A stretch of DNA of 36,473 nt from a virus. Its lineage: Duplodnaviria > Heunggongvirae > Uroviricota > Caudoviricetes. Both the position numbers and the translations under genes were made by a program. This document shows, piece after piece, positions 16,664 through 33,882 of the stretch (positions are counted from its first letter, which is position 1; the number at the start of each line of letters is the position of its first letter). Under the pieces are notes generated by a model. The model worked only from the letters and a program-made list of their open reading frames with translations. It did not search any database and was not told where the DNA came from. Location of the stretch: IMG/VR virus record IMGVR_UViG_2713896902_000005, positions 1 through 36,473 of that record; one strand, written 5' to 3'.

Positions 16664-17163
16664 GACTCGATGATTTTCAGAAACGGGTTAGTGGCTTTCT
16701 TCTGCCCCGCCAGGCCAATCAGACGCTGGCGGCTGCTGGGGTCGAGTCCGAGCATTGCCCCCGTGCTGCTCATCTCGGACTCCTGTTCTTTTTTGGCGGT
16801 CAGCTCCGGATTTTTGACCCTGCCGCCCATTGCACCGGTGATGGTGTTGCCCTGTATGGCAATATTTTTCACGGCACGTCGCCAGAACTCATAGGCCACG
16901 CACCACCGCTCAAGCACCGCGAGGTCAGTCACGCACAACAGGCCCTGACCGCAGAGTTCTTTGGTTGTCAGTTGCCACATGATCGTGGCGAGAGGGAGAT
17001 CTTCTTCAGCGAACCACTCTGGTGGCTCAACACCTTTGATGGGCGTAAAAACAGGTTCATCTTTGTTCAGGGCTCGCTTGCCGGGGTTTCCGGCCAGCGC
17101 CTTGCGCGCCGTTGGCTTGGGGCGACGCCCGGAACGCCCCGCCGTTCCAGCCATATGCGGCAC
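16660..17163 (-). CDS. terS: Terminase small subunit (P27 family)
   Basis: 167 aa, basic N-terminus; immediately upstream of terL. Confidence 0.7.
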
Positions 17164-17279
17164 TCCTGGTTAAATTTCATTTTTCGCGGGTATAAAAAAA
17201 CGATGGGGCGGGCAGTCCGGAAGACGTCAGGTCACAGAGATTTGACCCGCCCCTCCCCTCAGACAGTTGAGAGTTATTA
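17164..17279. other. Candidate cos / packaging recognition region
   Basis: Intergenic between HNH and terS; nested inverted repeats GGGGCGGG (17205-17212) / CCCGCCCC (17246-17253), GGTCA/TGACC and a GACGTC palindrome. Confidence 0.35.
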
Positions 17280-17630
17280 TCACTTAAGCCGTTCACGGGC
17301 CGTCTTCGCCTTATGGCACGGCCAGCACAGACTCTGCAGATTACTGTCGGCATCAGTGCCGCCATGTGCTTTAGGGATGATGTGGTCAACGGTTTTCGCT
17401 TCACGCGCCACACCAGCACGCAGACATAACTGACAAAGGCCTTTGTCACGTTGCAGCACACGCACGCGAATAACATCCCACTTAGAACCATAACCGCGCT
17501 GATGACGGGATTGTCCTGGCTTGTATTGCTTCCAGCCCTCGCTTTTGTGGCTTTCGCAGTAGCCTGACGGGTCTGTGGTGGTATGGCGGCAGCCACGAAC
17601 GCGGCAGGCTTTTGGGGTTCGTGGGGGCAT
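17280..17630 (-). CDS. HNH endonuclease (packaging-associated)
   Basis: 116 aa; motif HIIPKAHGGTDADSNLQSLCWPCH plus N-terminal Cys/His cluster; directly upstream of terS. Confidence 0.8.
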   Translation of the reverse strand: MPPRTPKACRVRGCRHTTTDPSGYCESHKSEGWKQYKPGQSRHQRGYGSKWDVIRVRVLQRDKGLCQLCLRAGVAREAKTVDHIIPKAHGGTDADSNLQSLCWPCHKAKTARERLK

Positions 17631-17654
17631 TGGACACTATCGTTGCTTATGTTT

Positions 17655-17682
17655 ATAAAAAAAGCCCTGCTTACGCAGGGCA
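17655..17682 (-). terminator. Rho-independent terminator
   Basis: Minus-strand RNA GCCCUGC-GUAA-GCAGGGC followed by a 7-U run. Confidence 0.65.
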
Positions 17683-17709
17683 TAAAAACTCAATATTGAT
17701 ACTATGAAT

Positions 17710-17940
17710 CTATTCCAAATCCCAACGTGGAATATTTATTATCTTACCAGGAGTTAAGGAAAATTTGGCTTTCTTCAATATCTCAACATTAGCATCATCA
17801 GGAATCACTAAGAAGTACGAATAGTGCATTTCTCCAGAATTCCCATGATTCTCCTGAATATCATCTTCGCTAACTCCCGACGCTTCAAGCTCATCAACTG
17901 TGAGTCCTAAATAATCAGCTAGCTTTTGTATATCAATCAT
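17710..17940 (-). CDS. Hypothetical small acidic protein (AT-rich moron)
   Basis: 76 aa ORF in a low-GC island between the lysis and packaging modules. Confidence 0.4.
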   Translation of the reverse strand: MIDIQKLADYLGLTVDELEASGVSEDDIQENHGNSGEMHYSYFLVIPDDANVEILKKAKFSLTPGKIINIPRWDLE

Positions 17941-18239
17941 TAATCACCTCACATATCAACGATGAGGCATCATCATCACACACTCTAGCAAAAGCTTCAA
18001 CTTATTGTTATTATTAAAATAATTCTATACAAATTACATCTAATGTATATCCTATGATACGATAGATGCGAATATTAATGACAAACAACCATCGTATTTC
18101 TCTGAAAAATGGCAAGTATCACTCATTATTCCCCATGCATCTATGTACTCTGTTCATGGTCAAGCCATAACTATATTTAATGCAAGAATACGGAAAGTTA
18201 AACAAATAAACGTTGATACACTAACATTCCACAAACTAG

Positions 18240-18533
18240 TTATACTAATGAAGTAGGCAATTCTTCCTCTGAAATTCCCAATACTCTCCTATCGGCCCGC
18301 AATTTTGCTATAGCGCACACTTCACTATAAGATGGTGCGGAGTTCTCAGGATAAAGTACATACTCAAAATGCGGCGGAGGATTGAATATTAAAACTGAAT
18401 ACCCAGCTTCTTGAAGGATATTTTGGACGATTGAATAATAAGGTCTACGCTCATCAAACCAATAACATCCATTCCTTTCTATTGACACGATTGCTTTTTT
18501 TGCGTGCTTCTTATAAACCCATGCCTTATCCAT
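18240..18533 (-). CDS. Hypothetical protein (AT-rich moron)
   Basis: 97 aa ORF in the same low-GC island. Confidence 0.4.
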   Translation of the reverse strand: MDKAWVYKKHAKKAIVSIERNGCYWFDERRPYYSIVQNILQEAGYSVLIFNPPPHFEYVLYPENSAPSYSEVCAIAKLRADRRVLGISEEELPTSLV

Positions 18534-18681
18534 ATCCTGTCAAAAATCTCTCTACGTAATTGAACAATAACACTACGTAGTAGTCATACACCAGAATATC
18601 TAACATATCAATCCAGCAACATTTAATTATTTTAACTTAATATGAAAAAGTCTTCAGTGATTATAATTTCACACCTATATA

Positions 18682-18972
18682 TCAATTCAGTAACTTTTCA
18701 GAGCCTGTGGCCAGTCTTTGGACACGCTGTTGTTGGACAATAGCTCGAATATGAGACTTGTCCGTATTACATTGCCCTAATGCAGATAACAAGCTCGCAT
18801 TTAAGTTGAGACTTGCACCATACGTCAGAGGGTCTGGTATGAGCGGTATAGGTGTTTCAGAAATCAAACTAGTTGGTAGTGGTGTAACCGGAGTGCTCAC
18901 GTAAACTGTCCGCGTACTTCCGCAACCGATCAGCAGCGGCAGCAGGCACAGGACGTGAAGCACAATCATCAT
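18682..18972 (-). CDS. Rz1: o-spanin Rz1-like lipoprotein, from an internal start of the 18682-19140 ORF
   Basis: Internal ATG at 18972 gives MMIVLHVLCLLPLLIGCGS... with lipobox LIGC; begins inside Rz in another frame and extends past the Rz stop. Confidence 0.5.
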   Translation of the reverse strand: MMIVLHVLCLLPLLIGCGSTRTVYVSTPVTPLPTSLISETPIPLIPDPLTYGASLNLNASLLSALGQCNTDKSHIRAIVQQQRVQRLATGSEKLLN

Positions 18973-19249
18973 CCGCAATAGCCATTTTGATATCTTCCTG
19001 GGTTCTCTGTGACTCCAGTGCGATCTGCTGTTTTGCATGCTGGTTAGCCTCCAGAACTGTATTGAAGATTTGTAGTGATTGCAGGACGTTATTGGTAATG
19101 GCTGTTGCTGATTCAGCATTTCGTACAGCCTCATCAGCACGTTTCTTTTCGTGCTGATATTTGCTGTAGTAGTGGTTGGCAGACCAGATGAAAGAACCGA
19201 TGACAGTAAAGATGAATGCAGAGATAGCCAGCTTATAGCTCAACTTCAT
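18869..19249 (-). CDS. Rz: i-spanin Rz-like
   Basis: 126 aa; N-terminal transmembrane helix then charged helical region; directly downstream of the endolysin. Confidence 0.6.
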   Translation of the reverse strand: MKLSYKLAISAFIFTVIGSFIWSANHYYSKYQHEKKRADEAVRNAESATAITNNVLQSLQIFNTVLEANQHAKQQIALESQRTQEDIKMAIADDDCASRPVPAAAADRLRKYADSLREHSGYTTTN

Positions 19250-19709
19250 TTACCACCCCACCAGCCTCTTTAAACCGGGAAATCAGGTCACCGATTTTAT
19301 GTTCATACTGACCGTAACCTGCACCAGGTAACGACGCCCAGATATTGCTGCAACGATCGATAGCCTGACGAATATCGCCGCGATCAATCATCGGTAAAGC
19401 GCCACGCTCTTTAATCTGCTGCAATGCCACAGCATCCTGGTTTTTGGGAGAGAAGTCTTTCAGAGCAAGCTGCTTACGGTAGGCATCCCACCAGCGTGAA
19501 AGAAGCTGATAACGTCCGGCGGCTGTTGATTTGAGTTTGGGGTTTAGCGTGACAAGTTTGCGAGGGTGATCAGAGTAATCAGTAAACAGTTCACCGCCAA
19601 CAATAACATCATAACCGTGATTACGTGTCGGTTGTCGCCCGTTATCCGTTCCTTCTGACCATGCCACCATATCGAGGAAAGCTTTACGCTGGGAATTTAG
19701 TACCTGCAT
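19233..19709 (-). CDS. R: Endolysin, lambda R-like lytic transglycosylase
   Basis: 158 aa; near-identical along its length to lambda R as recalled (QRKAFLDMVAWSEGTDNGRQ...DRGDIRQAIDRCSNIWASLPGAGYGQ). Confidence 0.9.
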   Translation of the reverse strand: MQVLNSQRKAFLDMVAWSEGTDNGRQPTRNHGYDVIVGGELFTDYSDHPRKLVTLNPKLKSTAAGRYQLLSRWWDAYRKQLALKDFSPKNQDAVALQQIKERGALPMIDRGDIRQAIDRCSNIWASLPGAGYGQYEHKIGDLISRFKEAGGVVNEVEL

Positions 19710-19712
19710 AAA

Positions 19713-20048
19713 TTACTCCTTAGAGCCACTAAACTTATTACCGATTACTCGCATTGCAGCTCCACGAATGGCATCAACACCGATCAGCCCAACGCCACCA
19801 CCAATGGCAACAGAAAGCGATTTAGGCCATCCGACATACTCAAGCGCGGATGCAAAAGTCAGCGTCAGAGCACCACAGAGCAAAATCTCGAGCGTTTTTC
19901 GCTTCCAGCCACCACCTCCGCCAAAATAGGCGATACGCAAACCAGCCATAACGATCGACATAATCACTGCCCCCAGCGGGGTGTCTCCACGCCACCAGCT
20001 CTGGAACAACTCCAGCCAGTCCGGCCAAGTATTTGGGTTATGAGGCAT
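19713..20048 (-). CDS. Holin
   Basis: 111 aa with hydrophobic segments and charged C-terminus, immediately upstream of the endolysin. Confidence 0.6.
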   Translation of the reverse strand: MPHNPNTWPDWLELFQSWWRGDTPLGAVIMSIVMAGLRIAYFGGGGGWKRKTLEILLCGALTLTFASALEYVGWPKSLSVAIGGGVGLIGVDAIRGAAMRVIGNKFSGSKE

Positions 20049-20093
20049 TTGTAGTTATCTCTCACCTGCGATTATTTGCGGGTGCTGTGTTGG

Positions 20094-20121
20094 AAATAAA
20101 AAGGCCACCCGAAGGCAGCCT
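20094..20121 (-). terminator. Rho-independent terminator downstream of the NTPase gene
   Basis: Minus-strand RNA AGGCUGCC-UUCG-GGUGGCCU (8 bp including 2 G-U pairs) followed by UUUUAUUU. Confidence 0.5.
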
Positions 20122-20144
20122 GATTTAATTATTCACATTAATCG

Positions 20145-21536
20145 TCACTTAATAGGATTTGGTTTTATGTCGTCAAGCCAGTCGTTATCACCTCTTAGCT
20201 TGGCTACTCGTCCTTCAACATTAGTTAACGGTTTATAAGCAGAGTATTTGCCTATAGCCCTAGCAGAATGCTCTCCAGCAACACGATAATTTTGGAAGTC
20301 CAACTCAAGTCCATGCTGCTCCGCTCTCATTCGAATATAGCCACGAAGCATGTTTTCTCTAAATCGAAACCAAGATGGACGATTCCCTAAAGCAGGGATG
20401 ATGATGCATCCAAATGTCGGTTTCTTCAATGCATTGAACTTTCGCTCAAACGTGGATTTATCTAAAGGTGTTACATCAAGCGATTTGCAAATTTTAACGT
20501 ACGATTCTGATATATGAGTCTTATGTCTGGTCAAATCAGCCATATCGGACATAGCCCAAAGAATATGCTTATATGACTCATCACGTCCCTCTGTTGCATC
20601 CGTGTAACTTTGCCTTAAAGTTTCCGAGACTGAATCAATTGCATCATTTAACCCTTTAATGAAAAGGTTGTAGTCAACAGAGCTGTATTCACGTATTGAG
20701 CTTTGACATGTTAAAAGGATTTTTTCACAAATAAGATGAATGTAGTTCGGGAACCCGTCACTAAGACCCGCAATTTTATAGCGGACAGAATCATCGACAG
20801 TCAGGCCAAACTCATCGAAAGCATTATCAATTATTTGAAAACGACCATTCCATGGTAAACTATCGAGATGTACCTGATGTATTTGTCGCTCACTTGATTT
20901 ATGCCCTCCGATTAAAGTAACGAGAGAATCACCAATCCCCGTAAAAATTAATTTTACTTCACACGCCTGATCACCAAGTTGCTTAATGAGTGATCCAAAC
21001 TTTTGTCGTTCTTCATCAGAGTCAATTTGGTCAAACTCATCGATAACTATATAAGGAATCTTTGAGTGAACTTTAGTTAAAAATTGCAACGCCCGAACGG
21101 CTGCAGAAACTGAGTCAATTTTCAGTTCTGGATAATTATATTTTTGATTTTGACCAGCATTGATACCACCAATTCCAGCCACATTTAAGCCAAAGCTCCA
21201 TCCCTGTGTATCGATTTTCTTATCCTGAGGTGTGCCTCGCAAAATAATGTCATTCATGACACTTGAAAAAGTGGATTCTTTCTCGCAGCCAACCAAAATA
21301 GGTTCAGCATCTTCCTGCAGCTTAAAAGCAACAGTTTGCGCTAAGGATGTCTTTCCTACTCCGCGATCACCATAAATGAAAGCATGCCGACCTGTAGCAT
21401 AAAGCGCCAATTCGAGATCGGTTACATGTTTTTCACGTCCAAATAACAGTTCCATAGAAACAACTGGACCCGTTGGTCGCAAAACTTTATGCAGTTTATG
21501 CATAAAGTCTCGCAAAGAAAGACCTCCACAGAGCAT
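20145..21536 (-). CDS. P-loop NTPase of unknown function (AAA/STAND-like Walker A and B), moron at the Q-S locus
   Basis: 463 aa; Walker A GDRGVGKTS and Walker B hhhhDE (YIVIDEFDQ); clearly lower GC than flanks; bracketed by terminators. Confidence 0.7.
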   Translation of the reverse strand: MLCGGLSLRDFMHKLHKVLRPTGPVVSMELLFGREKHVTDLELALYATGRHAFIYGDRGVGKTSLAQTVAFKLQEDAEPILVGCEKESTFSSVMNDIILRGTPQDKKIDTQGWSFGLNVAGIGGINAGQNQKYNYPELKIDSVSAAVRALQFLTKVHSKIPYIVIDEFDQIDSDEERQKFGSLIKQLGDQACEVKLIFTGIGDSLVTLIGGHKSSERQIHQVHLDSLPWNGRFQIIDNAFDEFGLTVDDSVRYKIAGLSDGFPNYIHLICEKILLTCQSSIREYSSVDYNLFIKGLNDAIDSVSETLRQSYTDATEGRDESYKHILWAMSDMADLTRHKTHISESYVKICKSLDVTPLDKSTFERKFNALKKPTFGCIIIPALGNRPSWFRFRENMLRGYIRMRAEQHGLELDFQNYRVAGEHSARAIGKYSAYKPLTNVEGRVAKLRGDNDWLDDIKPNPIK

Positions 21537-21602
21537 TTTTATTCTCCTGCATTTTTTTCGAAAACTATAACATCATTCTTTTTGGCAAGCCTTTCCTAAA
21601 CG

Positions 21603-21625
21603 CAAAAACCCGCACAATGGCGGGT
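21603..21625 (-). terminator. Candidate tR'-like terminator downstream of Q
   Basis: Minus-strand hairpin ACCCGC-CAUUGU-GCGGGU followed by UUUUU, about 50 nt after the Q stop. Confidence 0.5.
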
Positions 21626-21675
21626 TCTTACTATTATGTTGCTCAGTTCGCTTTTCGTCCCGAGCTTATCACAAT

Positions 21676-22254
21676 TCAAGCACTTTCTTGCTCACTTTGC
21701 AATTTAAATCTGTCGCTATTTGTGCCAAACGCATCACATAGTGGAGCGTACAGGAGCGATTCGGCCAAACTTATCCATGTGTCAACTCGGCGGCGACAGG
21801 TAATGAATGCCCAGTCAGGATGTTTAATATGAAGCTCATTGGCCATTTGCAACTTGCTCTTACGCAGACGATACCGGCCAACAATCACACCGTATAGAGA
21901 ACGGTAATCATTATTCATCAGCACCGAGGCGATCACACCGTCAATCTTCAGGCCTTCATCGTCCGAGCAAAACGCCAGACTACTTTTGTTTTTACTGTTG
22001 AGTATTTCGCGCAAATAAGCTTCGAGCTCTGGTTTCGTAATGCCTGACTTTTTCATACGGCGCAGCGCATCGTTGATTGCAGTTTTGGTAATTTTGCTGG
22101 ATACAAGCAGTTGGTTAAACATGTTACCGCTAGTCCCTCCACTGATATAAGACCAACGCCCCCACATGCGGAGCTTCCCCTGAACCCAGATACTTTCCAG
22201 AGTACGAAGACGAACCATTTCACCCGTTTTGCCAATTTCAGAAGGATTAATCAT
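21676..22254 (-). CDS. Late-gene antitermination protein Q-like
   Basis: 192 aa; position immediately upstream of the tR'-like hairpin and lysis genes; motif resemblance (RMWGRWSY, CSDDEG) to QuuD-type Q proteins as recalled. Confidence 0.55.
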   Translation of the reverse strand: MINPSEIGKTGEMVRLRTLESIWVQGKLRMWGRWSYISGGTSGNMFNQLLVSSKITKTAINDALRRMKKSGITKPELEAYLREILNSKNKSSLAFCSDDEGLKIDGVIASVLMNNDYRSLYGVIVGRYRLRKSKLQMANELHIKHPDWAFITCRRRVDTWISLAESLLYAPLCDAFGTNSDRFKLQSEQESA

Positions 22255-22268
22255 TTAGAGTTCTCCAC

Positions 22269-23264
22269 TTACGCCAGCACGCCAATTGCCAGCGCACGAT
22301 CGATAAAACGAAATATCAGCTCCAGCTGGGAGCCATACATCTCTTCAAATGCCACGGTATCCGCATGCAGCTCGTCGTGATGCTTTCTGCACAAAGGCAA
22401 CACAAAGAGGTCATGCGCTTTTGTACCCATTCCCCCCTGACCGTGGCCTATCAGGTGGTGGGGATCATCAGCAGGCTTTCCACAACATGCACACAGCTGC
22501 GTCTTAACCCAGCGCGTGTACTTTTCATTAACCCAGCGGCGACGTTTTGGGCGTAACATAAAAGACTCCGGCGACTCCGGATCCACTTCCAGCGCCAGCA
22601 CTTTTTTCGCTTTATCCTGGATGATGCTGGTGGCAGGAACCGAAGGCACAAGGTCACTTTCCCGGGTAACAGACGGCACAACAGGCTTCGGTAATCTCAG
22701 TGCCTTACGGGCTGCACTTTCCGGTAAGGCATCCGCCAGGTCATTACGAATCAGCCACCAGCACAGTTCCGGCATTGTCACAACGTGACTGTCATCAAAA
22801 CCGAGATCCCGACGCACAACAGACAACACCCAGCGGGCACAGTTATCCGTTGCCATTGATTCCAGCCGTTCCGTGAACTGATCGCGCAGCTGGTTATCGC
22901 AGTGCCAGCACAGACGGATTGCGCCCGTAGCGTGTCGCATTGTGGTCATGTTCTCGCTGTGCCAGTCGGAATGAGGCCACTGGCAGCCTTTTTCACGAAG
23001 TAACCAGCTTTCAAGACATTCCACGCCACCAGCACGACGGATCACTGCCTCATTGCGGAACACGGCCCGAACGGCAGGATCATCCGCCAGCGGTTGTGAT
23101 GCCGCCGGAACGGCACCACTGGCGAAAGATGAATAACGTTCCGGCTCAGGCTCCAGCAGGACACGCCCCTGCATAAACAGGGGCATCAGCTCTGAACCTG
23201 GCCTGAACAATACGATCCCCATACGCGGGGCAATTTCAGGAGTCAGTAGTGCTCTCACGGTCAC
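22269..23264 (-). CDS. DUF968-like protein with C-terminal HNH-like Cys/His motif
   Basis: 331 aa; C-terminal CACCGKPADDPHHLIGHGQGG...CRKHHDELH; typical Nin-region position. Confidence 0.5.
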   Translation of the reverse strand: MTVRALLTPEIAPRMGIVLFRPGSELMPLFMQGRVLLEPEPERYSSFASGAVPAASQPLADDPAVRAVFRNEAVIRRAGGVECLESWLLREKGCQWPHSDWHSENMTTMRHATGAIRLCWHCDNQLRDQFTERLESMATDNCARWVLSVVRRDLGFDDSHVVTMPELCWWLIRNDLADALPESAARKALRLPKPVVPSVTRESDLVPSVPATSIIQDKAKKVLALEVDPESPESFMLRPKRRRWVNEKYTRWVKTQLCACCGKPADDPHHLIGHGQGGMGTKAHDLFVLPLCRKHHDELHADTVAFEEMYGSQLELIFRFIDRALAIGVLA

Positions 23265-23265
23265 C

Positions 23266-24108
23266 TCAATGAACGGTATCGAGCAGCTTTAACAGCTCAG
23301 GGAATCGGGATTCGAAGAAATGCGGCTGCGTCTCGCGCGGATTTGCGGGACTGGTGATGTTCTTGCCGAACATGCAGCCTTTCGCTGTCAGCGACCAGAA
23401 TTTTTTGATGTTGTTAATCGCGGTACGGCTGTATCGTTCGCGCTGCTCGACGATCCCCAGTTTCACCATCTGGTGATATGCCTGATTAGCCGTCAGGCGT
23501 ATACCATACTGTTTCAGCAGTGCACTCAGTGACAGTGTCGGGCGACTTGAGCCATCGTGTGCATCAGCAGGAGCATCAATGGCATAGCGCGGTGCCAGAT
23601 TCGGTAAGCCAACAGCCTCCTGGAGTTTCTGACAGGCACCAAGCACTGAAGAGTTAGACAGGTTTAACTCCCGGCGCATAAAGTCCAGCAGGATCACGCC
23701 AGCCTGCATCTTGTCAGCAACCTGTCCGGATAATTTTTCCGGTGCGCTGGTTACCATATCGAAAGTACGGATCACCTTCAGATGGAATGACGGGCTGATC
23801 CACATTGCATAGGCATACACCAGTTCCTTGCAGACATACGTTCCCCGTTCATTTCCCCCATGAATCACACTCACCGGGTCAACACCCAAATTCTGGGTGT
23901 TGGTCAATTCATGAACAAGCTCAACAGTTTGTTGGCTGGAAAGAAACTTTCCCGGCTCCTTGGTTCTGGCATTTGCACCAGATGCTACTGCTGCGCGATG
24001 CAGATCGTTCAGGCTGTAACGCCCATAAGCATCACGACGAACTTCAATACCATCAATGACCATCAGATTATTCATACTTCGTTTCTCCTCTTGATCAGGC
24101 GGCTGCAC
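23266..24108 (-). CDS. KilA-N domain protein (antirepressor-like)
   Basis: 280 aa; N-terminal KilA-N-like region (LMVIDGIEVRRDAYGRYSLNDLHRAA). Confidence 0.55.
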   Translation of the reverse strand: MQPPDQEEKRSMNNLMVIDGIEVRRDAYGRYSLNDLHRAAVASGANARTKEPGKFLSSQQTVELVHELTNTQNLGVDPVSVIHGGNERGTYVCKELVYAYAMWISPSFHLKVIRTFDMVTSAPEKLSGQVADKMQAGVILLDFMRRELNLSNSSVLGACQKLQEAVGLPNLAPRYAIDAPADAHDGSSRPTLSLSALLKQYGIRLTANQAYHQMVKLGIVEQRERYSRTAINNIKKFWSLTAKGCMFGKNITSPANPRETQPHFFESRFPELLKLLDTVH

Positions 24109-24484
24109 CCGCCGTTTTCTCGTACTTACTGATAGTGATCTCGACCTTCCCTTCCGGGATAACCGGTCCCCACTCCACCAGCATTCTTTTCACCTGACTG
24201 TCGTCTTCCCACACCCCCGCGTGGGTCAGGGCGTCAAACAGCGCCTTGTTATAGTTGTCCAGATCGCGGATCCGGTTATCCGGAGGAAACAACACGATCT
24301 CCACTGAAGCAGGTGCCGACGTTGGTTTTGGCAGACGACGTAACTGCTCAACTATTGCTGCACACGCCGCGCTCTGGAATTTGCGCCCCGCCGCGCTTAT
24401 CAGGCTCTTACCTGCAAACGCCCCTTTGTTGGGGTGTCGCCAGTACGTGTTCACGCTGGGCGGAAAAGGCAGTATTAGCTTCAT
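24095..24484 (-). CDS. rusA: Holliday junction resolvase RusA
   Basis: 129 aa; RusA-like motifs (PPSVNTYWRH..., RDLDNYNKALFDALT). Confidence 0.8.
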   Translation of the reverse strand: MKLILPFPPSVNTYWRHPNKGAFAGKSLISAAGRKFQSAACAAIVEQLRRLPKPTSAPASVEIVLFPPDNRIRDLDNYNKALFDALTHAGVWEDDSQVKRMLVEWGPVIPEGKVEITISKYEKTAGAAA

Positions 24485-24807
24485 ACTTTCAGCTCCCTCT
24501 CATGTAACCAGTGGGCTACACGCAGCCTGGCGTTTTCCTCACCGGCAAGCAGTGCGCGGATAATCCCGACCGCCTCGCTGTCGTCGTCCTTCACCGCGGT
24601 ATGAAGAGTGATACCCCGGGCCACGCCACGCTTTATCGTGATGACGCCTTTTTTCTCCAGTGCGCGAAGATGCTCCACCGCTGCATTCACTGAACGGTAT
24701 CCCAGCATGGTTGCCACCTCCTGATTGGTTGGCGGGAAGCCACGTTCTTTCTGGTAAGAAATCAGCATATCCAGCACCTGCTGCTGGCATTGAGTTAACG
24801 TCGTCAT
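24481..24807 (-). CDS. LexA N-terminal DNA-binding domain protein lacking the S24 peptidase domain
   Basis: 108 aa; aligns with the LexA winged-helix pattern (LT.CQQQVLD..., GFPPT..E.A..LGYRS.NAA.EHL.AL.KKGVI); too short for a protease domain. Confidence 0.6.
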   Translation of the reverse strand: MTTLTQCQQQVLDMLISYQKERGFPPTNQEVATMLGYRSVNAAVEHLRALEKKGVITIKRGVARGITLHTAVKDDDSEAVGIIRALLAGEENARLRVAHWLHERELKV

Positions 24808-25490
24808 GCCGCCATCTCCCTGACCAGTTTTTCCGCCTGCTGGCGAACCTGCACCAGAAAGGCTTCACCACATGCCTCAAGTTCATCGCGCCCGATGTAG
24901 CTGATTGCCGGTCCCTTCCAGGTCTTGTCGAAAACAGCAATAGCACCAGCGAAGAAAGCGCCTGTCGGCACCTGCTTCTCATCCTTCGGGATAAACCAGG
25001 CAGGCAGTTCAAAACCAATACGCCCGCGAATAAAAGCAATATGGTCCGCATCTTCCGGCCACCACACTTCGCTGGTGGCAGCTTTGATCAGGAAAACATA
25101 GCGCCCGCCCTTATCACGCATGGCACTGGCATGTTTCATGATGTAACGCATGCCGGTGATGTATTGCCCCTCATGCTGACTGGCGCGGCTGTATGGGGGA
25201 TTACCAAAGGCAGCACCTTTAAGCTCCGCAAGACGTTCTGACCAGTCATGCGCCAGCGCGTTATCTTCCGCCGTGTAATACGCGGCACATTTGGCGTTAT
25301 CACCGTCAGTGAACAGATCCAGAACAAACGGGCCAAACAGGGTGTTAATTCCCCAGAAAATGTTGTCCGGCGTGCGCCACTGATCGCCCACTTCCTTCAG
25401 TTCATGGGCTGGTTTGTTCCGCAGTTCCACCAGCGCCTGGCAATATTTATTACTCATTAAGCCCCCACGTAATTCCCTGACAGATACCAC
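24804..25490 (-). CDS. Phage DNA N6-adenine methyltransferase (Dam-like)
   Basis: 228 aa with the NPPY catalytic motif (FGNPPY). Confidence 0.8.
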   Translation of the reverse strand: MVSVRELRGGLMSNKYCQALVELRNKPAHELKEVGDQWRTPDNIFWGINTLFGPFVLDLFTDGDNAKCAAYYTAEDNALAHDWSERLAELKGAAFGNPPYSRASQHEGQYITGMRYIMKHASAMRDKGGRYVFLIKAATSEVWWPEDADHIAFIRGRIGFELPAWFIPKDEKQVPTGAFFAGAIAVFDKTWKGPAISYIGRDELEACGEAFLVQVRQQAEKLVREMAA

Positions 25491-25951
25491 TCTTCACCCG
25501 ATGCAGCGCGCTTGCTGCTTTTCCGTAAGCACCGCTCACGGCGCGCCAGAAAATTGTTTCGTTCTGACTGGGAGTGGCTTTCACGGAATGCCGCCATCCA
25601 CACGGTTGCAGCACGACGGTATAAGCCCCTGGACTCCAGTTCTTCAGCCTGGCGGGTCAGGCACAAAATCACCCGGGGATCGTTAGTGCCGACATAGAAA
25701 TTACGCACAGGTTTGGTTTCACGAACTGGTTGCGGTTCCGGCTCCTGCGCTCTCTCAGTCAGGCGCGGGAAATGTCTGCGTGTATCTCCTTCACAACGGT
25801 GAGCCACACGCCCACTCTGACGTAACTTGCTTGCAGACTGCAGAACGCGCTGCCGTGAGTAACCTGCAAAAGCATCCGCAATGTCTCCGGAAGTACACCC
25901 CGGATGGGCTTCAATGAATTTCTGAACTTCATTCAAAAGACTCATAATCAC
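25457..25951 (-). CDS. Putative transcriptional regulator with PerC-like C-terminal region
   Basis: 164 aa; C-terminal AEELESRGLYRRAATVWM resembles the PerC motif as recalled. Confidence 0.4.
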   Translation of the reverse strand: MIMSLLNEVQKFIEAHPGCTSGDIADAFAGYSRQRVLQSASKLRQSGRVAHRCEGDTRRHFPRLTERAQEPEPQPVRETKPVRNFYVGTNDPRVILCLTRQAEELESRGLYRRAATVWMAAFRESHSQSERNNFLARRERCLRKSSKRAASGEEWYLSGNYVGA

Positions 25952-26889
25952 CCCCTGAATCCTGCCGGGATCTGGCTGTAGTCCACGTTGTCGTAACTGG
26001 ATTTGAAGTACGGGTCTTCGCGTTTTTCGGTGTACGTGCTTACGGACGGCGATAAGCGCAGGGAAAGCTCATCCCATTTTTCCCGCAGCTTCGACGGGCT
26101 GAGCACGTTACGGCACCAGAACGGATCGCGGCTGACGCGGCTGTACATCTCGCAGATTTGTTTATGAGTACGCCCATCCTGTACACACATCAGGCGAATT
26201 TCGTTTGCCCAGGCTGTCCAGTTCGGTTCTTTAGGACGTACCACTTCGCCGTCACATTCGGCGGCCTGCTCGTACAGAGCGATGATTTTTTTCCAGAGCC
26301 ACTGTGCGCAGGTCAAATCATCCTGCGTTCCCCACTGGCGCTTTTTAGGGCTGAATACAACCGCATCAGGATGGCGAGTTAAAAACTCTTGTTCAGCCGT
26401 CTGCGTGTCCGGTTGCGAAGCGTCCGGACGAGAAGTTTTTTTATCTGACGGATCATGTTTTGATTTTACTGACGGATCCCCGCCAGATTCTGACGGGTGA
26501 AAACCCGCTTTTTTGCCAGATTTCGACGCATCAAATTTTGACTGGTCAGATTTTGATGCGTCAGATTTTGACGGGTCAGAATCTGACAGTTGAGAAAATG
26601 CCGCTGCCTGAAGCTTCGCAACGTTAAGCTGATAAACATTCGACGCATTGCGGTTACCCTGGCGACGCGCCTTACGCGTTAACCAGCCTTCTGCTTCCAG
26701 CCGTGCGATAGCCGTTCTGACGGTGCTCATCCCCGCGCCAATCTGGCGGGCAATGGTTTCAATTGATGGCCAGCACACACCTTCGTCATTACTGAAATCA
26801 GCCAGGCGGGCCATAATTGCCACGCTGGATAACTTCATGCCTGACGCAGCGCAACCATCCCATACATAGCCGGTTAATTTAGTGCTCAT
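25948..26889 (-). CDS. Replication initiator (O-like: N-terminal HTH, repetitive linker, C-terminal domain)
   Basis: 313 aa; N-terminal HTH; linker SDSDPSKSDASKSDQSKFDASKSG encoded by the iteron block; position after cro and the CII-like gene. Confidence 0.65.
   Translation of the reverse strand: MSTKLTGYVWDGCAASGMKLSSVAIMARLADFSNDEGVCWPSIETIARQIGAGMSTVRTAIARLEAEGWLTRKARRQGNRNASNVYQLNVAKLQAAAFSQLSDSDPSKSDASKSDQSKFDASKSGKKAGFHPSESGGDPSVKSKHDPSDKKTSRPDASQPDTQTAEQEFLTRHPDAVVFSPKKRQWGTQDDLTCAQWLWKKIIALYEQAAECDGEVVRPKEPNWTAWANEIRLMCVQDGRTHKQICEMYSRVSRDPFWCRNVLSPSKLREKWDELSLRLSPSVSTYTEKREDPYFKSSYDNVDYSQIPAGFRG
26440..26595. repeat. Iteron array inside the initiator gene (candidate replication origin)
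   Basis: Tandem 15-bp units TCAGATTTTGAYGSG (e.g. 26546-26590) with degenerate copies back to about 26440. Confidence 0.6.
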
Positions 26890-26898
26890 GACCGACCT

Positions 26899-27237
26899 CT
26901 ATTTCCCTGAATTTACGACGAAACTGTTCGAGCGGGCTGAAGCACTCATGCTCATAGCCTTCGCGGAGGTAGATAACCCGTTGTGTTTCCGGTTCCCAAC
27001 GAATGACTCTGACGGGCACTCCGTAGTGATCTTTGAACCAGCGGTTAACTTGTCGCAAAGGACTGTCTCCTTTTGCCGGTTGAAATCACCCACAGCCCAC
27101 TCTGCAAAGCTGTGGGTTACAATTTCCCTGTCACCTGGTACATTCACTGCATAGCAATACTCCACCTTCGCTTTTCCACCCGGTACAGGAAGTGCAATCA
27201 GTTGCGAGCGACGGTAGTGTGTTGTTAAACTGTTCAT
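26899..27237 (-). CDS. Hypothetical protein (uncertain ORF)
   Basis: 112 aa ORF filling the gap between the CII-like and initiator genes; a plus-strand ORF (26882-27154) is an alternative. Confidence 0.25.
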
Positions 27238-27803
27238 GCGTTAGTTTCTCCACAACCAGAAGCAATCGACGCCACGACGCCCGGAGCTGCACACTCGCGG
27301 GCGTCATTACTTTCTGAAATGCAAAAAATTTTGTAGACAAGTGCTGCATGCTCCTGCAGCTTCGAAATTGAGAGATACAGCTCGTCGTTAATTGCTGTCT
27401 TCTCATGCGGTTCCACTACACCGTCTTCGATTGCTGAACGAATCTGTTTTGAATAACTGCCGATCTGTTCAATGACTTCCAGCAGACGCTGGTTAATATC
27501 GGCGTTGTCCACATCCTCGACGTCAGGAAGAGACACAAAGACGCCATTTGCAGACTGCGCCACAGCATCAGCAATGAAGTGAGTGCCACCAGCACGCTGT
27601 AAAACCATTGCCCATCCCAGCGGAAAAATCTGATCGCCATCTGCACGAAGGCGGTTGAATAAAGCGTTCTCTGTTACATCCAGCCAGTCAGCCGCTTCAG
27701 CGTAACCACCCGGCAACGCCGCGATAGTTTTTCTGACAGCTTTCACGTACCACTCAGGCTGTTTTTCTATTTTCCAGTGATGCTTACCCACGATTAGCCT
27801 CAT
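27234..27803 (-). CDS. CII-like / YdaT-like early regulatory protein
   Basis: 189 aa; position immediately downstream of cro. Confidence 0.4.
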
Positions 27804-27834
27804 CGTTCTGTGGTTAAAAATTGAAAGTGTTCTG

Positions 27835-28035
27835 CTAATCTTTCGGATAGATATCCGGTCTTAAGTCAGATTTCGTAATTGCACCTGACGTGCATTGCTC
27901 AAGTTTTTTAGCCAGCACAAAACTGGCTTTTTTATAGCCATTGAAAACCAGCCGTAAGTAGCCAGGTGTTGAGCCAACTTTTCCGGCCAACTCGCCCTGC
28001 TGTTCTTTGGTTAAAGAGTCCCAATACGCTTTCAT
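27835..28035 (-). CDS. cro: Cro-like HTH repressor (internal ATG start of the 27835-28338 ORF)
   Basis: 66 aa MKAYWDSLTKEQQGELAGKVGSTPGYLRLVFNGYKK...; GGAGG about 9 nt upstream of ATG at 28035; divergent from cI. Confidence 0.6.
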   Translation of the reverse strand: MKAYWDSLTKEQQGELAGKVGSTPGYLRLVFNGYKKASFVLAKKLEQCTSGAITKSDLRPDIYPKD

Positions 28036-28125
28036 ACAACATGTACCTCCTGTATACATATTACATGATTGAAATGAACCTTCAAGATACTTGTACCTTA
28101 ACGGTACAAGGGTTTTAATTTCGTT
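28036..28125. promoter_or_regulatory. cI-cro intergenic switch region with candidate operators
   Basis: Perfect palindrome CTTGTACC-TTAAC-GGTACAAG at 28090-28110 plus related TGTAC sites (CATGTACC, TGTATACA). Confidence 0.55.
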
Positions 28126-28800
28126 ATGAAAACAATCCATGACATCCGGCGGTCTAACGCCAGAAAACTGAGAGATGGTGTTGGCGGGAATTCTTCCTTT
28201 GCCACTATGATTGATCGCGAGCCAACCCAGACCAGCAGGTTTATGGGAGATGGTGCTACTAAAAATATCGGTGACAGCATGGCACGACACATCGAAAAAT
28301 GTTTCGACCTGCCTGTCGGATGGCTCGATCAAGAACACCAGACAACGAACATCACAAAAAAACCTGATGTTTCAATCACTAATAAACAAATCACATTAGT
28401 CCCTGTCATATCATGGGTACAGGCCGGAGCATGGAAAGAAGTTGGATATTCTGAGGTTGATTTGAGCACAGCAGAAACGTATCCCTGCCCTGTACCCTGT
28501 GGGGAAATGACTTATATCTTGCGGGTGATAGGTGATTCAATGATTGATGAGTACCGCCCGGGAGACATGATTTTTGTCGATCCTGAAGTACCTGCCTGCC
28601 ACGGTGACGACGTTATTGCATTGATGCACGATACAGGTGAAACCACCTTCAAAAGGTTGATAGAAGATGGGACACAGCGTTATCTCAAAGCGTTAAACCC
28701 AAACTGGCCTGAGCCTTACATTAAGATCAACGGTAATTGCTCTATAATTGGAACTGTGATTTTCTCAGGAAAACCAAGAAGATACAAAATCAAAGCCTAA
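28126..28800 (+). CDS. cI: CI-like repressor with LexA-type S24 autopeptidase domain
   Basis: 224 aa; N-terminal HTH; C-terminal GDSM serine motif (RVIGDSMIDEYRPGDMIFVD); divergent from cro. Confidence 0.85.
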   Translation: MKTIHDIRRSNARKLRDGVGGNSSFATMIDREPTQTSRFMGDGATKNIGDSMARHIEKCFDLPVGWLDQEHQTTNITKKPDVSITNKQITLVPVISWVQAGAWKEVGYSEVDLSTAETYPCPVPCGEMTYILRVIGDSMIDEYRPGDMIFVDPEVPACHGDDVIALMHDTGETTFKRLIEDGTQRYLKALNPNWPEPYIKINGNCSIIGTVIFSGKPRRYKIKA

Positions 28801-28812
28801 TCAATGTTTATG

Positions 28813-28837
28813 AACCTGCTTCGGCAGGTTTTTTTAT
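28813..28837 (+). terminator. Rho-independent terminator of cI
   Basis: AACCTGC-TTCG-GCAGGTT followed by a 7-T run, 12 nt after the cI stop. Confidence 0.7.
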
Positions 28838-28839
28838 AC

Positions 28840-28872
28840 TTGACAATGTACCCATGAGATACATATTGTACC
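28840..28872 (+). promoter_or_regulatory. Candidate PL/OL-like promoter-operator region
   Basis: TTGACA at 28840-28845 followed by operator-like half-sites ATGTACCC and ATTGTACC similar to those between cI and cro. Confidence 0.3.
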
Positions 28873-28951
28873 AAAGAGAAACAACAAACAGGCAGGACGC
28901 CCACGAAGTAGCCGCCAGGGGCATATGAAGTCCTGGATGATTCGTTAGTAA

Positions 28952-28976
28952 CAAAAAAAGCGTCGTACAGGACGCT
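28952..28976 (-). terminator. Rho-independent terminator of the DUF1311-like gene
   Basis: Minus-strand RNA AGCGUC-CUGUAC-GACGCU followed by a 7-U run. Confidence 0.55.
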
Positions 28977-29000
28977 TCGCTCTTTAACAATCTGGATGAC

Positions 29001-29516
29001 TTATCGGTCAGATTTAAACTGGGGTTCTGGCAAAACTGGTGGTGTTGAATCTTCAAATCGTAACCAGTGTTCCCAAATATCATGTGTTCGTAATTTCTGT
29101 AGACTAATTTGACGCGATGCAATTGCGGAATTAGTGGTTACTCCACCAGAAGCATCGCTCTCTACTGACGTTGAGGCTTTTTCTACTAATTCTGACCAAG
29201 CTTCACTTTCTGCGTCAAAAGCTTCTGTTAAGTCCCGCAGACGCTGTGGCTCATTTTTATGGTCTTCCTTCAAACGATTCAAAGCGGCAGTTGAATACTT
29301 ATTCCTGACCCATTCGATCTGAGTTAGCTGAATCCGCAGACAATTATCTATATCAATGGTTGTGTTCTGAGGCATGTCAGAACAAGAAATATAAAAGGTC
29401 ACAACTCCACCGTTCAAACTACTGCCCGGTTCGATTAAAACATTAGAGGAATTTGACGTAGTCGGCAATATTAATGCTAACGACAAAACCACATGTTTAA
29501 CAGAAATCGCACCCAT
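29001..29516 (-). CDS. Secreted/periplasmic protein, DUF1311 (LprI-like) candidate; lysogeny-expressed moron
   Basis: 171 aa with N-terminal signal-peptide-like segment (MGAISVKHVVLSLALILPTTS); convergent with cI; own terminator; moderately AT-rich. Confidence 0.45.
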   Translation of the reverse strand: MGAISVKHVVLSLALILPTTSNSSNVLIEPGSSLNGGVVTFYISCSDMPQNTTIDIDNCLRIQLTQIEWVRNKYSTAALNRLKEDHKNEPQRLRDLTEAFDAESEAWSELVEKASTSVESDASGGVTTNSAIASRQISLQKLRTHDIWEHWLRFEDSTPPVLPEPQFKSDR

Positions 29517-29803
29517 TTAAATTGCCCTCTTAAGAACAAGGTCATCCAGATTAACCGAAACCTGGTTATTGGGGAATAACCAAATCCACCTCGCCTGATG
29601 TGGCTAAAAGCAGGCACATAACAGCTAAGTATTTTCAACCAGAGAGAATCCTTAGCGTTGTGGTGAATGCGCAGGCTGATGCGCGAAAGACATTGCAGCT
29701 ATTGCGGAAAAGAGCTGTTCGGCGGGGCAATTAAATGCCTGTGAGAGTCTGAAATAACCGCAAGCCGGAGATCAGCACCGGTCACCACAACAGCCACTGC
29801 TTT

Positions 29804-29840
29804 GGCGGTACCAGTTTGTACACTTACTTCCGGCTGGTAC
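29804..29840 (+). terminator. Terminator-like hairpin in the early-left leader
   Basis: GCGGTACCAG...CTGGTACCGC (10-bp stem, 19-nt loop) followed by TCTTTTT. Confidence 0.4.
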
Positions 29841-29929
29841 CGCTCTTTTTACAAAACAGAGAAGAGCATCACCGGACGACGGGCTCATAACCCAATCCAT
29901 CCGGGCGGCTGCCACCGCAGGTGTTCTTC
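29841..29929. repeat. Perfect 15-bp inverted repeat with 59-bp spacer
   Basis: ACAAAACAGAGAAGA (29841-29855) and TCTTCTCTGTTTTGT (29915-29929). Confidence 0.7.
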
Positions 29930-29987
29930 TCTGTTTTGTGGAGAAACCAACCGGCCTTGCAGGGTCGATATGATGAGGAGCAGCAAA

Positions 29988-30350
29988 ATGGCTAGCGAAC
30001 GCAGTACCAACGTGCAGGAATTTATCGGGGAGCTGGACGGCGGCGTATTTGAAACCAAAATCGGCGCAGTTCTCAGTGAAGTCGCTTCCGGTGTGATGAA
30101 CACGAAAACCAAAGGTAAGGTCTCGCTCAACCTGGAAATCGAACCATTTGATGAGAACCGTGTGAAAATCAAACACAAACTCTCATATGTTCGCCCGACT
30201 AACCGCGGGAAAATTTCTGAAGAAGACACCACCGAAACGCCGATGTATGTCAATCGCGGTGGTCGCCTGACTATTCTGCAGGAAGACCAGGGACAATTAC
30301 TGACTCTTGCCGGTGAACCTGACGGAAAACTACGCGCAGCAGGTCATTAA
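29988..30350 (+). CDS. yfdP: YfdP-like early-left protein (internal ATG of the 29802 ORF)
   Basis: 120 aa from ATG 29988 with GAGGAG 7 nt upstream; length and order match the E. coli CPS-53 yfdP-Q-R-S cluster (recalled, not searched). Confidence 0.45.
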   Translation: MASERSTNVQEFIGELDGGVFETKIGAVLSEVASGVMNTKTKGKVSLNLEIEPFDENRVKIKHKLSYVRPTNRGKISEEDTTETPMYVNRGGRLTILQEDQGQLLTLAGEPDGKLRAAGH

Positions 30351-30415
30351 TATCGTTCTTAATTAACTGATTATTTATCTCATCACTGAATATCTTTATA
30401 TAGTGAGGACTTATT

Positions 30416-31240
30416 ATGTCTCAGAGCTTAGACGCAACCGCAATTAATCAAATCCATGCCCTTATTTCTGCTCAGGGTGTTAATGAAATTATCAGTAAGA
30501 TTGGTGCCGATGCTGTGGCATTGCCTGAGAATTTCCGCATTCATGATCTGGAAAAATTTAATTTAAATCGCTTCCGTTTCCGTGGTGCGCTTTCCACTGC
30601 CTGCATCGATGACTTTACCCGTTATTCTAAAGATCTTGCAGATGAAGGCACCCGCTGCTTTATCGATGCCGATAATATGCGTGCCGTCAGTGTGCTTAAC
30701 CTGGGTACTATTGATGAACCAGGTCACGCAGATAACACCGCCACTCTCAAACTGAAAAAGACAGCACCGTTCTCTGCACTGTTGTCTGTTAACGGCGAGC
30801 GTAACTCCCAGAAGTCTCTGGCAGAATGGATTGAAGACTGGGCCGACTACCTTGTGGGCTTTGATGCTAATGGTGATGCCATTCAGGCAACAAAAGCGGC
30901 TGCGGCGGTCCGTAAAATCACGATTGAAGCAAACCAGACTGCTGATTTTGAAGATAATGACTTCAGCGGCAAACGCTCCCTGATGGAGTCTGTCGAAGCG
31001 AAGACCAAAGACATTATGCCAGTGGCATTTGAGTTTAAATGCGTTCCGTTTGAAGGTCTGAAAGAACGTCCGTTTAAATTACGCCTCAGCATTATCACTG
31101 GCGATCGTCCGGTACTGGTTCTGCGCATTATTCAGCTGGAAGCGGTGCAGGAAGATATGGCTAACGAATTTCGTGATCTGCTTGTTGAGAAATTCAAGGA
31201 CAGCAAAGTAGAAACCTTTATTGGGACTTTCACCGCCTGA
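30416..31240 (+). CDS. yfdQ: YfdQ-like protein (DUF2303)
   Basis: 274 aa; good RBS; length and synteny match CPS-53 yfdQ. Confidence 0.5.
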
Positions 31241-31368
31241 TTTCATTACTGCAAATGCCCCTGCGGGGGCATTTATGGAAACGTAATTGACTCAATAATC
31301 GCCTGAAGGCGAGGGTTTTCTTTAACCAAAATTCAGCGCGGTGCAGCGCATATAACGTGGAGAACAAA

Positions 31369-31905: not shown

Positions 31906-32258
31906 ATGTTTTCGAAATGGAAGGGTTTCTTCGCGGGAAATGTGTACCGCGAGATCTGAAAGTGAACGAAACAAATGCTGAGTACCTGGTACGTAAATTC
32001 GACGCGCTTGAAGCTAAATGTGCGGCACTGGAAAGCAAAATAATACCAGTGTCAGCTGAACTGCCACCAGCAAATGAAAGTGTTCTGTTATTTGATGCTA
32101 ACGGAGAAGGCTGGCTGATTGGCTGGCGTTCTCTCTGGTACACCTGGGGACAAAAAGAAACCGGAGAATGGCAGTGGACATTTCAGGTCGGGGACCTTGA
32201 AAACGTCAATATCACTCACTGGGCAGTAATGCCGAAAGCACCAGAGACTAAGAAATGA
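31896..32258 (+). CDS. yfdS: DUF551-like protein (YfdS-like)
   Basis: 120 aa; Trp-rich C-terminus (WLIGWRSLWYTWGQKETGEWQW...WAVMP); overlaps the preceding stop. Confidence 0.5.
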   Translation: MRINVFEMEGFLRGKCVPRDLKVNETNAEYLVRKFDALEAKCAALESKIIPVSAELPPANESVLLFDANGEGWLIGWRSLWYTWGQKETGEWQWTFQVGDLENVNITHWAVMPKAPETKK

Positions 32259-32470: not shown

Positions 32471-32517
32471 TTATCAGGACTGGAATTTGATATTACTGCC
32501 CGTGTGCAGCGGGCTAA

Positions 32518-33869: not shown

Positions 33870-33882
33870 GTGGCTTTATCAA

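Follow-up and report, generated by a model that had tools for sequence, protein, structure and literature searches.

The stretch of DNA analysed here, which we call the window, is the 36,473-nucleotide virus record IMGVR_UViG_2713896902_000005. Between the genes for a Q-like antiterminator and a lambda-family holin, its minus strand carries an intact open reading frame (ORF) with an ATG start, which encodes a stand-alone nucleoside triphosphatase (NTPase) of 463 amino acids (aa). A preliminary description had proposed that this gene is a moron, i.e. a horizontally acquired and separately transcribed cargo unit, and that its product resembles the NTPases of the signal transduction ATPases with numerous domains (STAND) and the origin recognition complex (ORC). 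By its sequence and position, we take the gene to be a genuine moron. Its product has the predicted fold of an ORC/STAND-like AAA+ protein, and we tentatively favor a role as a single-protein exclusion or anti-phage factor. The features of the locus, all on the minus strand, are as follows.

22269–23264: DUF968/HNH-like gene, upstream of Q
21676–22254: DUF1133/Q-like antiterminator (Pfam and PHROG matches), upstream boundary of the slot
21598–21626: strong hairpin with T-run, between the stop codon of Q (21676) and the ATPase start; candidate tR'-like terminator of a short late-promoter leader
21564–21572: extended −10 element TGtTATAGT, read from the sequence; candidate promoter of the cargo gene itself
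21544–21548: Shine-Dalgarno sequence AGGAG, 7 nt ahead of the ATG
20145–21536: stand-alone AAA_16/ORC-STAND-like NTPase gene, 463 aa, phrog_6841
21345–21371: codons of Walker A (residues 56–64, GDRGVGKTS)
21117–21236: codons of a variable loop (residues ∼101–140), between helix 90–101 and the helix preceding the Walker B strand
21027–21053: codons of Walker B (residues 162–170, YIVIDEFDQ)
20316–20576: codons of a predicted winged helix (residues ∼321–407), with conserved wing and following helix
20092–20121: hairpin with T-run resembling an intrinsic terminator, 24 nt past the ORF stop and 44 nt ahead of the holin ATG
19713–20048: lambda-family holin S (Pfam, 2.6e-27), downstream boundary of the slot
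19233–19709: lysozyme-sized ORF without Pfam match, whose counterpart in the THO-006 prophage is annotated as GH24
18869–19249: ORF in the Rz position, whose THO-006 counterpart is annotated as "lysis protein"

The span originally given for the element, 20094–21627, runs from terminator to terminator, with the ORF proper at 20145–21536. The 463-aa frame with both Walker motifs and its location between Q and holin are as first described; the three genes share one strand. The Q-like protein matches DUF1133 in Pfam (2.3e-89), "anti-termination protein Q-like" in PHROG (2.5e-66) and also Phage_antitermQ. RefSeq contains a near-identical E. coli protein, WP_021562676.1, under the name "ATP-binding protein". 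Searches for Rfam families and tRNAs found none anywhere in the window.

The cargo slot between Q and holin

The window is a lambdoid prophage of E. coli. The 2.6 kb around the ATPase gene are 99.7–99.8% identical to a prophage that occurs in 56 out of 5426 complete E. coli genomes; among these carriers are many human isolates and at least one strain labelled O25b:H4-ST131 (sequence type 131). The compared prophages share the gene order methyltransferase, LexA-like, RusA, KilA/Ant, DUF968, DUF1133-Q and holin. Their Q-to-holin slots contain the following.

2017C-4173W12: empty, 495 nt without annotated gene
PCP06238: gene for a 159-aa hypothetical protein on the opposite strand
GDSC2BY4G: gene for a 111-aa hypothetical protein
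FEX669: 65-aa gene and gene for a 350-aa DNA methyltransferase, after a different (ydfT-type) Q

Since related prophages have the slot empty or filled otherwise, it is an exchange point for alternative cargoes, among them the ATPase. FEX669 is the closest overall relative of the left arm of the window, with matching early-gene order. The same Q-ATPase arrangement is found in Enterobacter sp. kpr-6 (locus L016), where the similarity stops just past the downstream T-run and a different gene follows.

The composition of the gene is foreign to its surroundings. Its G+C content is 0.400 (0.319 at third codon positions), compared to 0.459 in Q, 0.527 in the holin gene, 0.556 in the DUF968 gene and 0.506 over the whole window, which bears out the lower G+C content reported for it. 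The same holds across the family, whose ORF exceeds its own 20-kb locus in AT content at 74 of the 80 loci compared (median G+C difference, −6.5 points). Together with the empty or otherwise filled slots of the relatives, this composition upholds the proposed horizontal acquisition. Three of the four properties of a moron are thus found, namely insertion between otherwise adjacent genes, deviant composition and a terminator-like hairpin of its own; the fourth, a promoter, is predicted.

Both of the terminator-like hairpins announced for the flanks are present, each followed by a T-run. The upstream hairpin (stem 21626–21607, AACCCGC-CATTGTG-CGGGTT, then TTTGCGTTT) has a predicted stability of −18.6 kcal/mol (z −4.8), which was reached by none of 200 shuffled sequences; the downstream one (stem 20121–20102, then TTTTATTT) has −13.1 kcal/mol (z −2.7). 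In the Enterobacter sp. kpr-6 copy both stems are kept and both loops differ: the upstream loop CATTGTG is replaced by CATCGAG over a conserved stem, and the downstream loop TTCG by AAAT, with one G-U pair changed to G-C. Conservation of stems around changed loops is beyond chance expectation. From its position, we infer that the upstream hairpin is the "Q-dependent" terminator of the preliminary description. Between this hairpin and the start codon, the Enterobacter copy retains TGnTATAGT, located 28 nt ahead of the ATG, amid bases that vary, and likewise the core GGAG of the Shine-Dalgarno sequence. These elements predict that the ATPase gene is transcribed separately. A candidate for the late promoter pR' within the end of the Q gene (TTGGCA-16-TAAATT) has a −10 element that is not conserved in Enterobacter, and we do not claim it.

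The E. coli and Enterobacter sp. kpr-6 proteins, the sole pair compared for selection, are 91% identical (42 differences), whereas their genes have a third-position identity of only 0.48. The resulting ratio of nonsynonymous to synonymous differences (pN/pS) is 0.07; we used this ratio and not a distance-corrected dN/dS because synonymous sites are saturated. The gene is therefore under strong purifying selection, i.e. functional and constrained. The replacements cluster in the variable loop (residues 101–141), a few surface patches and the tail, with 11 of the 42 differences falling into the loop at residues about 101–140. The most variable parts of the protein are thus candidates for those expected to set its specificity.

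Along the same alignment (window 20145–21700, L016 9810–11392), the coding sequence has 78% nucleotide identity and the non-coding spacer ahead of it 84%. The lesser divergence of the spacer would fit either a strong constraint on a regulatory spacer or a mosaic history of the unit.

Regarding the history of the prophage, the Q allele of the window is present at ≥99% identity in 57 E. coli genomes (59 match over ≥80% of the Q query), compared to 56 with the ATPase-bearing 2.6 kb, and Q alleles at 81–87% identity accompany other slot contents. The linkage of Q allele and ATPase cargo in E. coli is thus almost perfect, and they seem to travel as one block. The early region of the window has genes of the yfdN-yfdR type and an integrase at 32697–33869. 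Window 17000–36473 is not contained as a whole in any of the collected complete E. coli genomes, the best being FEX669 with 74% coverage in five pieces. As no genome holds this whole half, the prophage reads as a mosaic of a CPS-53/e14-like early region and the Q-ATPase-lysis block of ST131-type strains.

A second AT-rich block (window 17690–18700, G+C 0.34) lies between the ORF in the Rz position and the HNH/terminase genes. It contains two minus-strand ORFs, one of 97 aa without Pfam, PADLOC or PHROG match (18240–18533) and one of 76 aa that belongs to phrog_31861, of unknown function (17710–17940). The block looks like another variable slot, because the otherwise near-identical THO-006 prophage has a DUF2441 gene in its place.

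Protein architecture and relation to known families

Within Pfam, the protein matches AAA_16 (PF13191) over residues 31–185 with 39.8 bits, above the cut-off of 32.6, and AAA_22 is also above its cut-off; ATPase_2, nSTAND1 and NACHT remain below threshold. The same picture emerges from 50 diverse homologues, in which AAA_16 was matched by 50, ATPase_2 by 49, nSTAND1 by 44 (E≤1e-3, best 1.9e-9), nSTAND6 by 19, nSTAND3 by 15, NACHT by 10 and TniB, weakly, by 4. Over its full length the protein matches phrog_6841, a family of unknown function (E 6e-103, residues 13–452 on positions 13–463 of the 470 in the profile).

An alignment of the 50 homologues has 36 invariant columns, which include all catalytic motifs: G56, R58, G59, G61, K62 and S64 of Walker A and D166, E167 and F168 of Walker B. 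Further invariant columns are found in LFG33R34E, F198/G200, H212/S214/R217, R232, G261-x-P263...H267 and R398/G399. R217 is a probable Orc-like arginine finger, and we read G261-F-P263, located in the lid, as a GxP motif of the STAND type.

The AlphaFold2 model, built from an alignment of 50 sequences, is confident (pLDDT 84.5, pTM 0.78). It comprises an AAA+ α/β base with a helical lid, followed by a winged-helix-like domain and a tail of about 55 residues for which confidence is low. The winged helix has the order H-E-H-H-E-E-H, with R386, W389, E394, R398, G399 and R402 conserved. The variable loop is the least conserved part of the alignment (column conservation 0.25–0.26), and its residues 107–133 are disordered in the model (pLDDT <50). 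Orc/Cdc6-type AAA+ initiators carry their initiator-specific motif at this position, which makes the loop, as placed in the model, a candidate specificity element.

Foldseek searches with the model against PDB had Cdc6/Orc1 as top matches (1e-10; alignments of roughly 410–440 columns, gaps counted), followed by ORC and RFC subunits and then by CED-4, Apaf-1 and plant NLRs (nucleotide-binding leucine-rich repeat receptors). Overall, archaeal ATPases of the PF01637 type and Orc1/Cdc6 are the closest in fold, and TnsC, MuB, BrxC and STAND proteins come next. Model, Foldseek neighbors and sub-threshold matches to nSTAND1 and Orc profiles agree with the resemblance to STAND/ORC-like NTPases noted earlier. 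The P-loop starts at residue 56, and neither Pfam, PADLOC nor the predicted structure revealed a nuclease, NADase, protease, TIR, transmembrane or repeat domain, so that the absence of an effector in cis, noted previously, stands.

With Orc1/Cdc6 the protein shares the AAA+ base, the lid and the C-terminal winged helix. However, the profile TIGR02928 matches only the N-terminal 90 residues with 35.6 bits, against a cut-off of 181.3, NF001625 scores 15.6 against 501, and the identity to Orc1/Cdc6 structures (1fnn, 2qby, 2v1u, 1w5s) is 13–16%. Also, in our reading of the sequence, the lid has GxP and not the sensor-2 motif "GDAR". Orc1/Cdc6 proteins are origin-linked core initiators, whereas the window gene is a mobile, AT-rich accessory. 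To the archaeal PF01637 proteins (ATPase_2, "Arch_ATPase"), such as PABY2304 (2qen) and SSO1545 (2fna), the similarity is again below the cut-off (24.7 bits vs 33.2); these have about 350 aa compared to 463, and the match supplies no mechanism.

The possible connection to STAND proteins (Avs and bNACHT; NLR, Apaf-1 and CED-4) consists of a NOD-like P-loop core with GRE and GxP motifs, of Foldseek matches to CED-4, Apaf-1, ZAR1 and NRC at about 1e-8, and of sub-threshold to moderate matches to nSTAND1, nSTAND3, nSTAND6 and NACHT across the family. In the window protein itself, nSTAND1 reaches 22.4 bits, against a cut-off of 27.1, alongside the putative Orc-like arginine finger. The genomic lifestyle, in prophages and defence islands, is the same. 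Yet the protein has neither an N-terminal effector nor a C-terminal repeat sensor (TPR, WD40), its 463 aa are far below the typical size of a defence STAND, and no PADLOC model for Avs or bNACHT matches. For comparison, the sensors analysed by Lee et al. (PMC12803255) have by themselves at least 400 aa.

The structural likeness to TnsC, MuB and IstB is confined to the AAA+ core, and the sequence match is the weak one to TniB in 4 of the 50 members. A transposase is neither located beside the window gene nor conserved across the 80 loci, and the same is true of the BREX partner genes that would be expected around a BrxC. Comparisons with housekeeping phage ATPases (terminase, clamp loader, Sak4, DnaA/Hda, DnaX) yielded weak partial matches only, including those in PHROG, and the fold matches in BFVD were generic clamp loaders, at TM-scores near 0.4. 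A confident homology to a packaging or replication ATPase, which would have spoken against the original proposal, was hence not found. Judging from sequence and model, the ATPase has the look of an Orc/Cdc6-STAND core hybrid that falls outside Orc1/Cdc6, Avs, bNACHT, TnsC/MuB and BrxC.

Distribution and genomic contexts of the family

A profile search over 1.84 billion representative proteins yielded 989 clusters (at 50% identity) with E≤1e-30 and 2752 with E≤1e-10. The family is represented in at least 365 species-representative genomes, with a patchy distribution among Gamma-, Beta- and Alphaproteobacteria and Acidobacteria. In the best 150 of 5262 HMMER matches, which were also inspected for fusions to an effector domain, full-length members nearly all have about 410–470 aa. 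Only one protein, with 576 aa, is clearly longer, whereas shorter entries cover no more than a portion of the profile and resemble fragments. Because of this uniform length, the one-protein, effector-less architecture is stable across the family.

ORF clustering across the 80 loci revealed no conserved partner gene. The commonest neighbor clusters are serine recombinases (13 loci), a phage replication-type protein (10), integrases (10) and cI-like repressors (9). The 150 immediate neighbors, analysed with Pfam and PADLOC, are heterogeneous and comprise resolvases, ParB, three Q antiterminators of two families, DUF968 and Mom; PADLOC matches among them are to type II and IV restriction enzymes, PtuB, NsnA, SoFic, PD-T4-2_A and AbiJ. 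ART-PolyVal proteins are also found next to homologues.

Individual contexts illustrate this diversity.

Vibrio parahaemolyticus prophage: homologue directly after DUF968 and ahead of the lysis genes
Edwardsiella ictaluri prophage: between cI/HipA-like genes and the integrase
Providencia element: beside AlpA and an integrase
Pectobacterium integrative element: with a relaxase and an integrase
Pseudomonas island: adjoining the Gabija genes GajA/GajB
Acinetobacter 13-kb plasmid: directly after a BsuBI/PstI restriction-modification (R-M) pair
Yersinia pestis plasmid pMT1 (NC_004835.1, 92597–93994): directly after parA/parB and before a DNA methylase/DUF1380/ArdA cluster
Nitrogeniibacter aestuarii (locus L014, 6735–9365): 30 nt downstream of rtcB, in an rtcR/Band_7/zinc-finger/rtcB RNA-repair cluster

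The pMT1 homologue (WP_002228775.1, "AAA family ATPase") is full-length, 44% identical and present in 63 Y. pestis plasmid records; copies in Pantoea and Intestinirhabdus also follow parB. In deposited phage genomes we found only two homologues, both with about 25% identity: gp30 of Mycobacterium phage Kevin1, located between lysis cassette and integrase and adjoining a HicB-like gene, and gp34 of Gordonia phage Cashline, between tail genes and integrase. The announcement of Kevin1 describes gp30 as an orpham AAA-ATPase in the central variable region of cluster N and suggests a link to prophage-mediated defence (PMC6544188).

In the Edwardsiella prophages (loci L004–L006, 5570–7122), genes for a HipA_2-like kinase and a DUF3037 protein lie between the cI-type repressor and the homologue. 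They may represent another accessory or toxin-type pair of the prophage.

Candidate functions

Prophages, plasmids and islands carry this gene family as an optional cargo, in many cases in the company of defence genes. Our analysis favors, still tentatively and at slightly less than even confidence, a lambdoid-prophage moron whose product is a single-protein exclusion or anti-phage factor acting by ATP-dependent assembly. A role in defence or exclusion is the best reading and plausible, its basis being guilt by association, i.e. genomic context. The cargo unit would consist of a single ORF with its Shine-Dalgarno sequence, a probable extended −10 promoter ahead of it and an intrinsic terminator behind, set into the Q-to-holin slot. 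In the lysogen, this promoter would drive its expression, with late read-through in addition during infection, and the protein would serve the lysogen, as its relatives may serve plasmids and islands. At rest, it would be a nucleotide-bound monomer. Winged helix and variable loop would sense a ligand derived from the invader, most plausibly DNA or a DNA-protein intermediate of replication or packaging, upon which the protein would assemble, dependent on ATP, into an oligomer or filament. The assembly would then block replication or maturation of the invader, either directly or by recruiting a host factor. We consider this mechanism, borrowed from Orc/Cdc6, TnsC and MuB, the most economical because there is no enzymatic effector.

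In genomic logic, this reading has two parallels. Like lambdoid Q-S morons, the gene occupies a variable slot between conserved modules, is foreign in composition, and has a predicted terminator and a candidate promoter of its own; the position is the one that stx occupies in Stx phages. The prophage-expressed defence genes of cluster N mycobacteriophages follow the same logic, and it is in the variable region of this cluster that Kevin1 encodes its 25% identical gp30. In contrast to both, the window carries a cargo that belongs neither to the toxins nor to the known defence proteins.

Several observations weigh against a defensive role. The matches to defence models (PADLOC-DB 2.0, NCBIfam 20) are to the P-loop alone, at residues ∼46–79 (best mad8 2e-4, PDC-S01 2e-3, DS41_1 5e-3, IetA 0.02), so that we assign the protein to no known defence family; of the profile searches proposed at the outset, those in Pfam thus placed it, in AAA_16, but those for defence families did not. 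In the absence of an effector domain, a killing or blocking activity must be assumed. A scan for −35/−10 consensus promoters, which requires a −35 element, returned none at the TGtTATAGT site, and the gene, being inside the late operon, may be made chiefly in lytic growth for the benefit of the phage. The neighbor counts are raw numbers from crude ORF calling at 80 loci. Finally, two contexts are not defence-like: the location after parAB on pMT1 and the one after rtcB in Nitrogeniibacter, which is atypical and unlike a mobile element.

The foremost alternative is a late-expressed gene that benefits the phage itself, by counter-defence or host takeover, and is read through from the Q-modified late transcript. 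Such a protein could promote lytic growth or shield the DNA of the progeny, for instance if it displaced or sequestered a defence or DNA-binding factor of the host. The location in the late operon directly after Q fits this proposal, as do the DNA methyltransferase, a classic self-protection cargo, in the same slot of a related prophage, the methylase/DUF1380/ArdA anti-restriction cluster adjoining the pMT1 homologue, and the occurrence of Mom and ART-PolyVal among the neighbors of homologues. We nevertheless regard it as unlikely, given that relatives in islands, integrative elements and small plasmids have no late operon and lie beside R-M and Gabija systems, that the Edwardsiella, Kevin1 and Cashline copies are near repressor or integrase and outside the late region, and that the conserved promoter-like element and own terminator argue for expression independent of Q.

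Given that Orc/Cdc6, TnsC, MuB and clamp loaders are the best studied of its relatives in structure, the protein could also be a factor for DNA transactions or maintenance of mobile elements, i.e. an ORC/TnsC/MuB-like switch for replication initiation, partition, choice of recombination sites or target immunity. The copies that follow parB on pMT1, in Pantoea and in Intestinirhabdus point in this direction, together with the serine recombinases, the commonest neighbors, and the weak TniB matches. The gene is dispensable, however, with syntenic prophages lacking it and few E. coli genomes carrying it; the 80 loci have no conserved neighbor, be it a transposase, an origin-linked gene or another partner, and its TIGR02928 score is far below the cut-off. 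Moreover, the THO-006 prophage has replication genes of its own besides the ATPase gene, and the left arm of the window matches the early order of FEX669. We therefore judge a maintenance role quite unlikely.

It is very unlikely, in our estimate, that the protein is one half, sensor or switch, of a split system, with the effector encoded at another place in host or prophage, so that the gene alone would be inert in a naive host. This would account for the missing effector in cis and would follow the rule that STAND and AAA+ switches usually govern an output module, with BrxC-like ATPases needing multi-gene systems. But no neighbor is conserved over the phyletic range of the 80 loci, from Gamma-, Beta- and Alphaproteobacteria to Acidobacteria, and an effector acting in trans would have to be a near-universal core protein of the host, at which point the proposal merges with the version of our preferred mechanism that recruits a host factor. 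Lastly, the possibility of decaying or neutral hitch-hiking DNA without current function, to which low G+C content, patchy distribution and an annotation no further than "ATP-binding protein" might point, is effectively refuted by the signal of selection, seen against an intact frame, 36 invariant columns and conserved regulatory flanks.

An exclusion or anti-phage factor thus remains the reading we prefer. In its most far-reaching form, a minimal, effector-less ORC/STAND-like AAA+ protein would by itself be a complete immune or exclusion system. Its winged helix and variable loop would detect the DNA of an invading phage or plasmid, or an intermediate of replication or packaging, and ATP-dependent assembly on this target would suffice to stop the invader without any nuclease, NADase or membrane effector; this form we consider unlikely. 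We found no paper on WP_021562676 or phrog_6841. Such a protein does not appear in the main texts of the DefensePredictor, domain-centric and language-model screens or of the STAND survey, and may be listed in the tables of Lee et al. (2026), which cover 589 STAND clades, or in Brenes & Laub 2025, a paper cited for "prophage-encoded STANDs". New, as far as the sequence indicates, would be an ORC/STAND-like NTPase without effector and sensor as autonomous prophage cargo. It is a clean and widespread candidate, yet one of many uncharacterised ATPase candidates. Its practical value is that of a well-defined and easily cloned object of 1.6 kb, for which the evidence is computational.

If the protein is protective, it would constitute a widespread single-gene system missed by current defence-finding tools, in a family that occurs in ST131-type clinical E. 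coli and on Y. pestis pMT1. It would also offer a compact, effector-less model of 463 aa for how an ORC/STAND nucleotide switch can stop a virus alone, and would bear on the relation between STAND immune receptors and DNA-binding initiator ATPases. Should it in fact be a complete system, it would represent a new mechanistic class of single-protein defence, with about 1000 clusters in prophages, phage-plasmids (Y. pestis pMT1 among them), integrative elements and defence islands. If its role is instead in counter-defence or maintenance, the Q-to-holin slot of DUF1133-Q prophages is still documented as a point of cargo exchange, at which an ATPase, a DNA methyltransferase and small ORFs replace one another.

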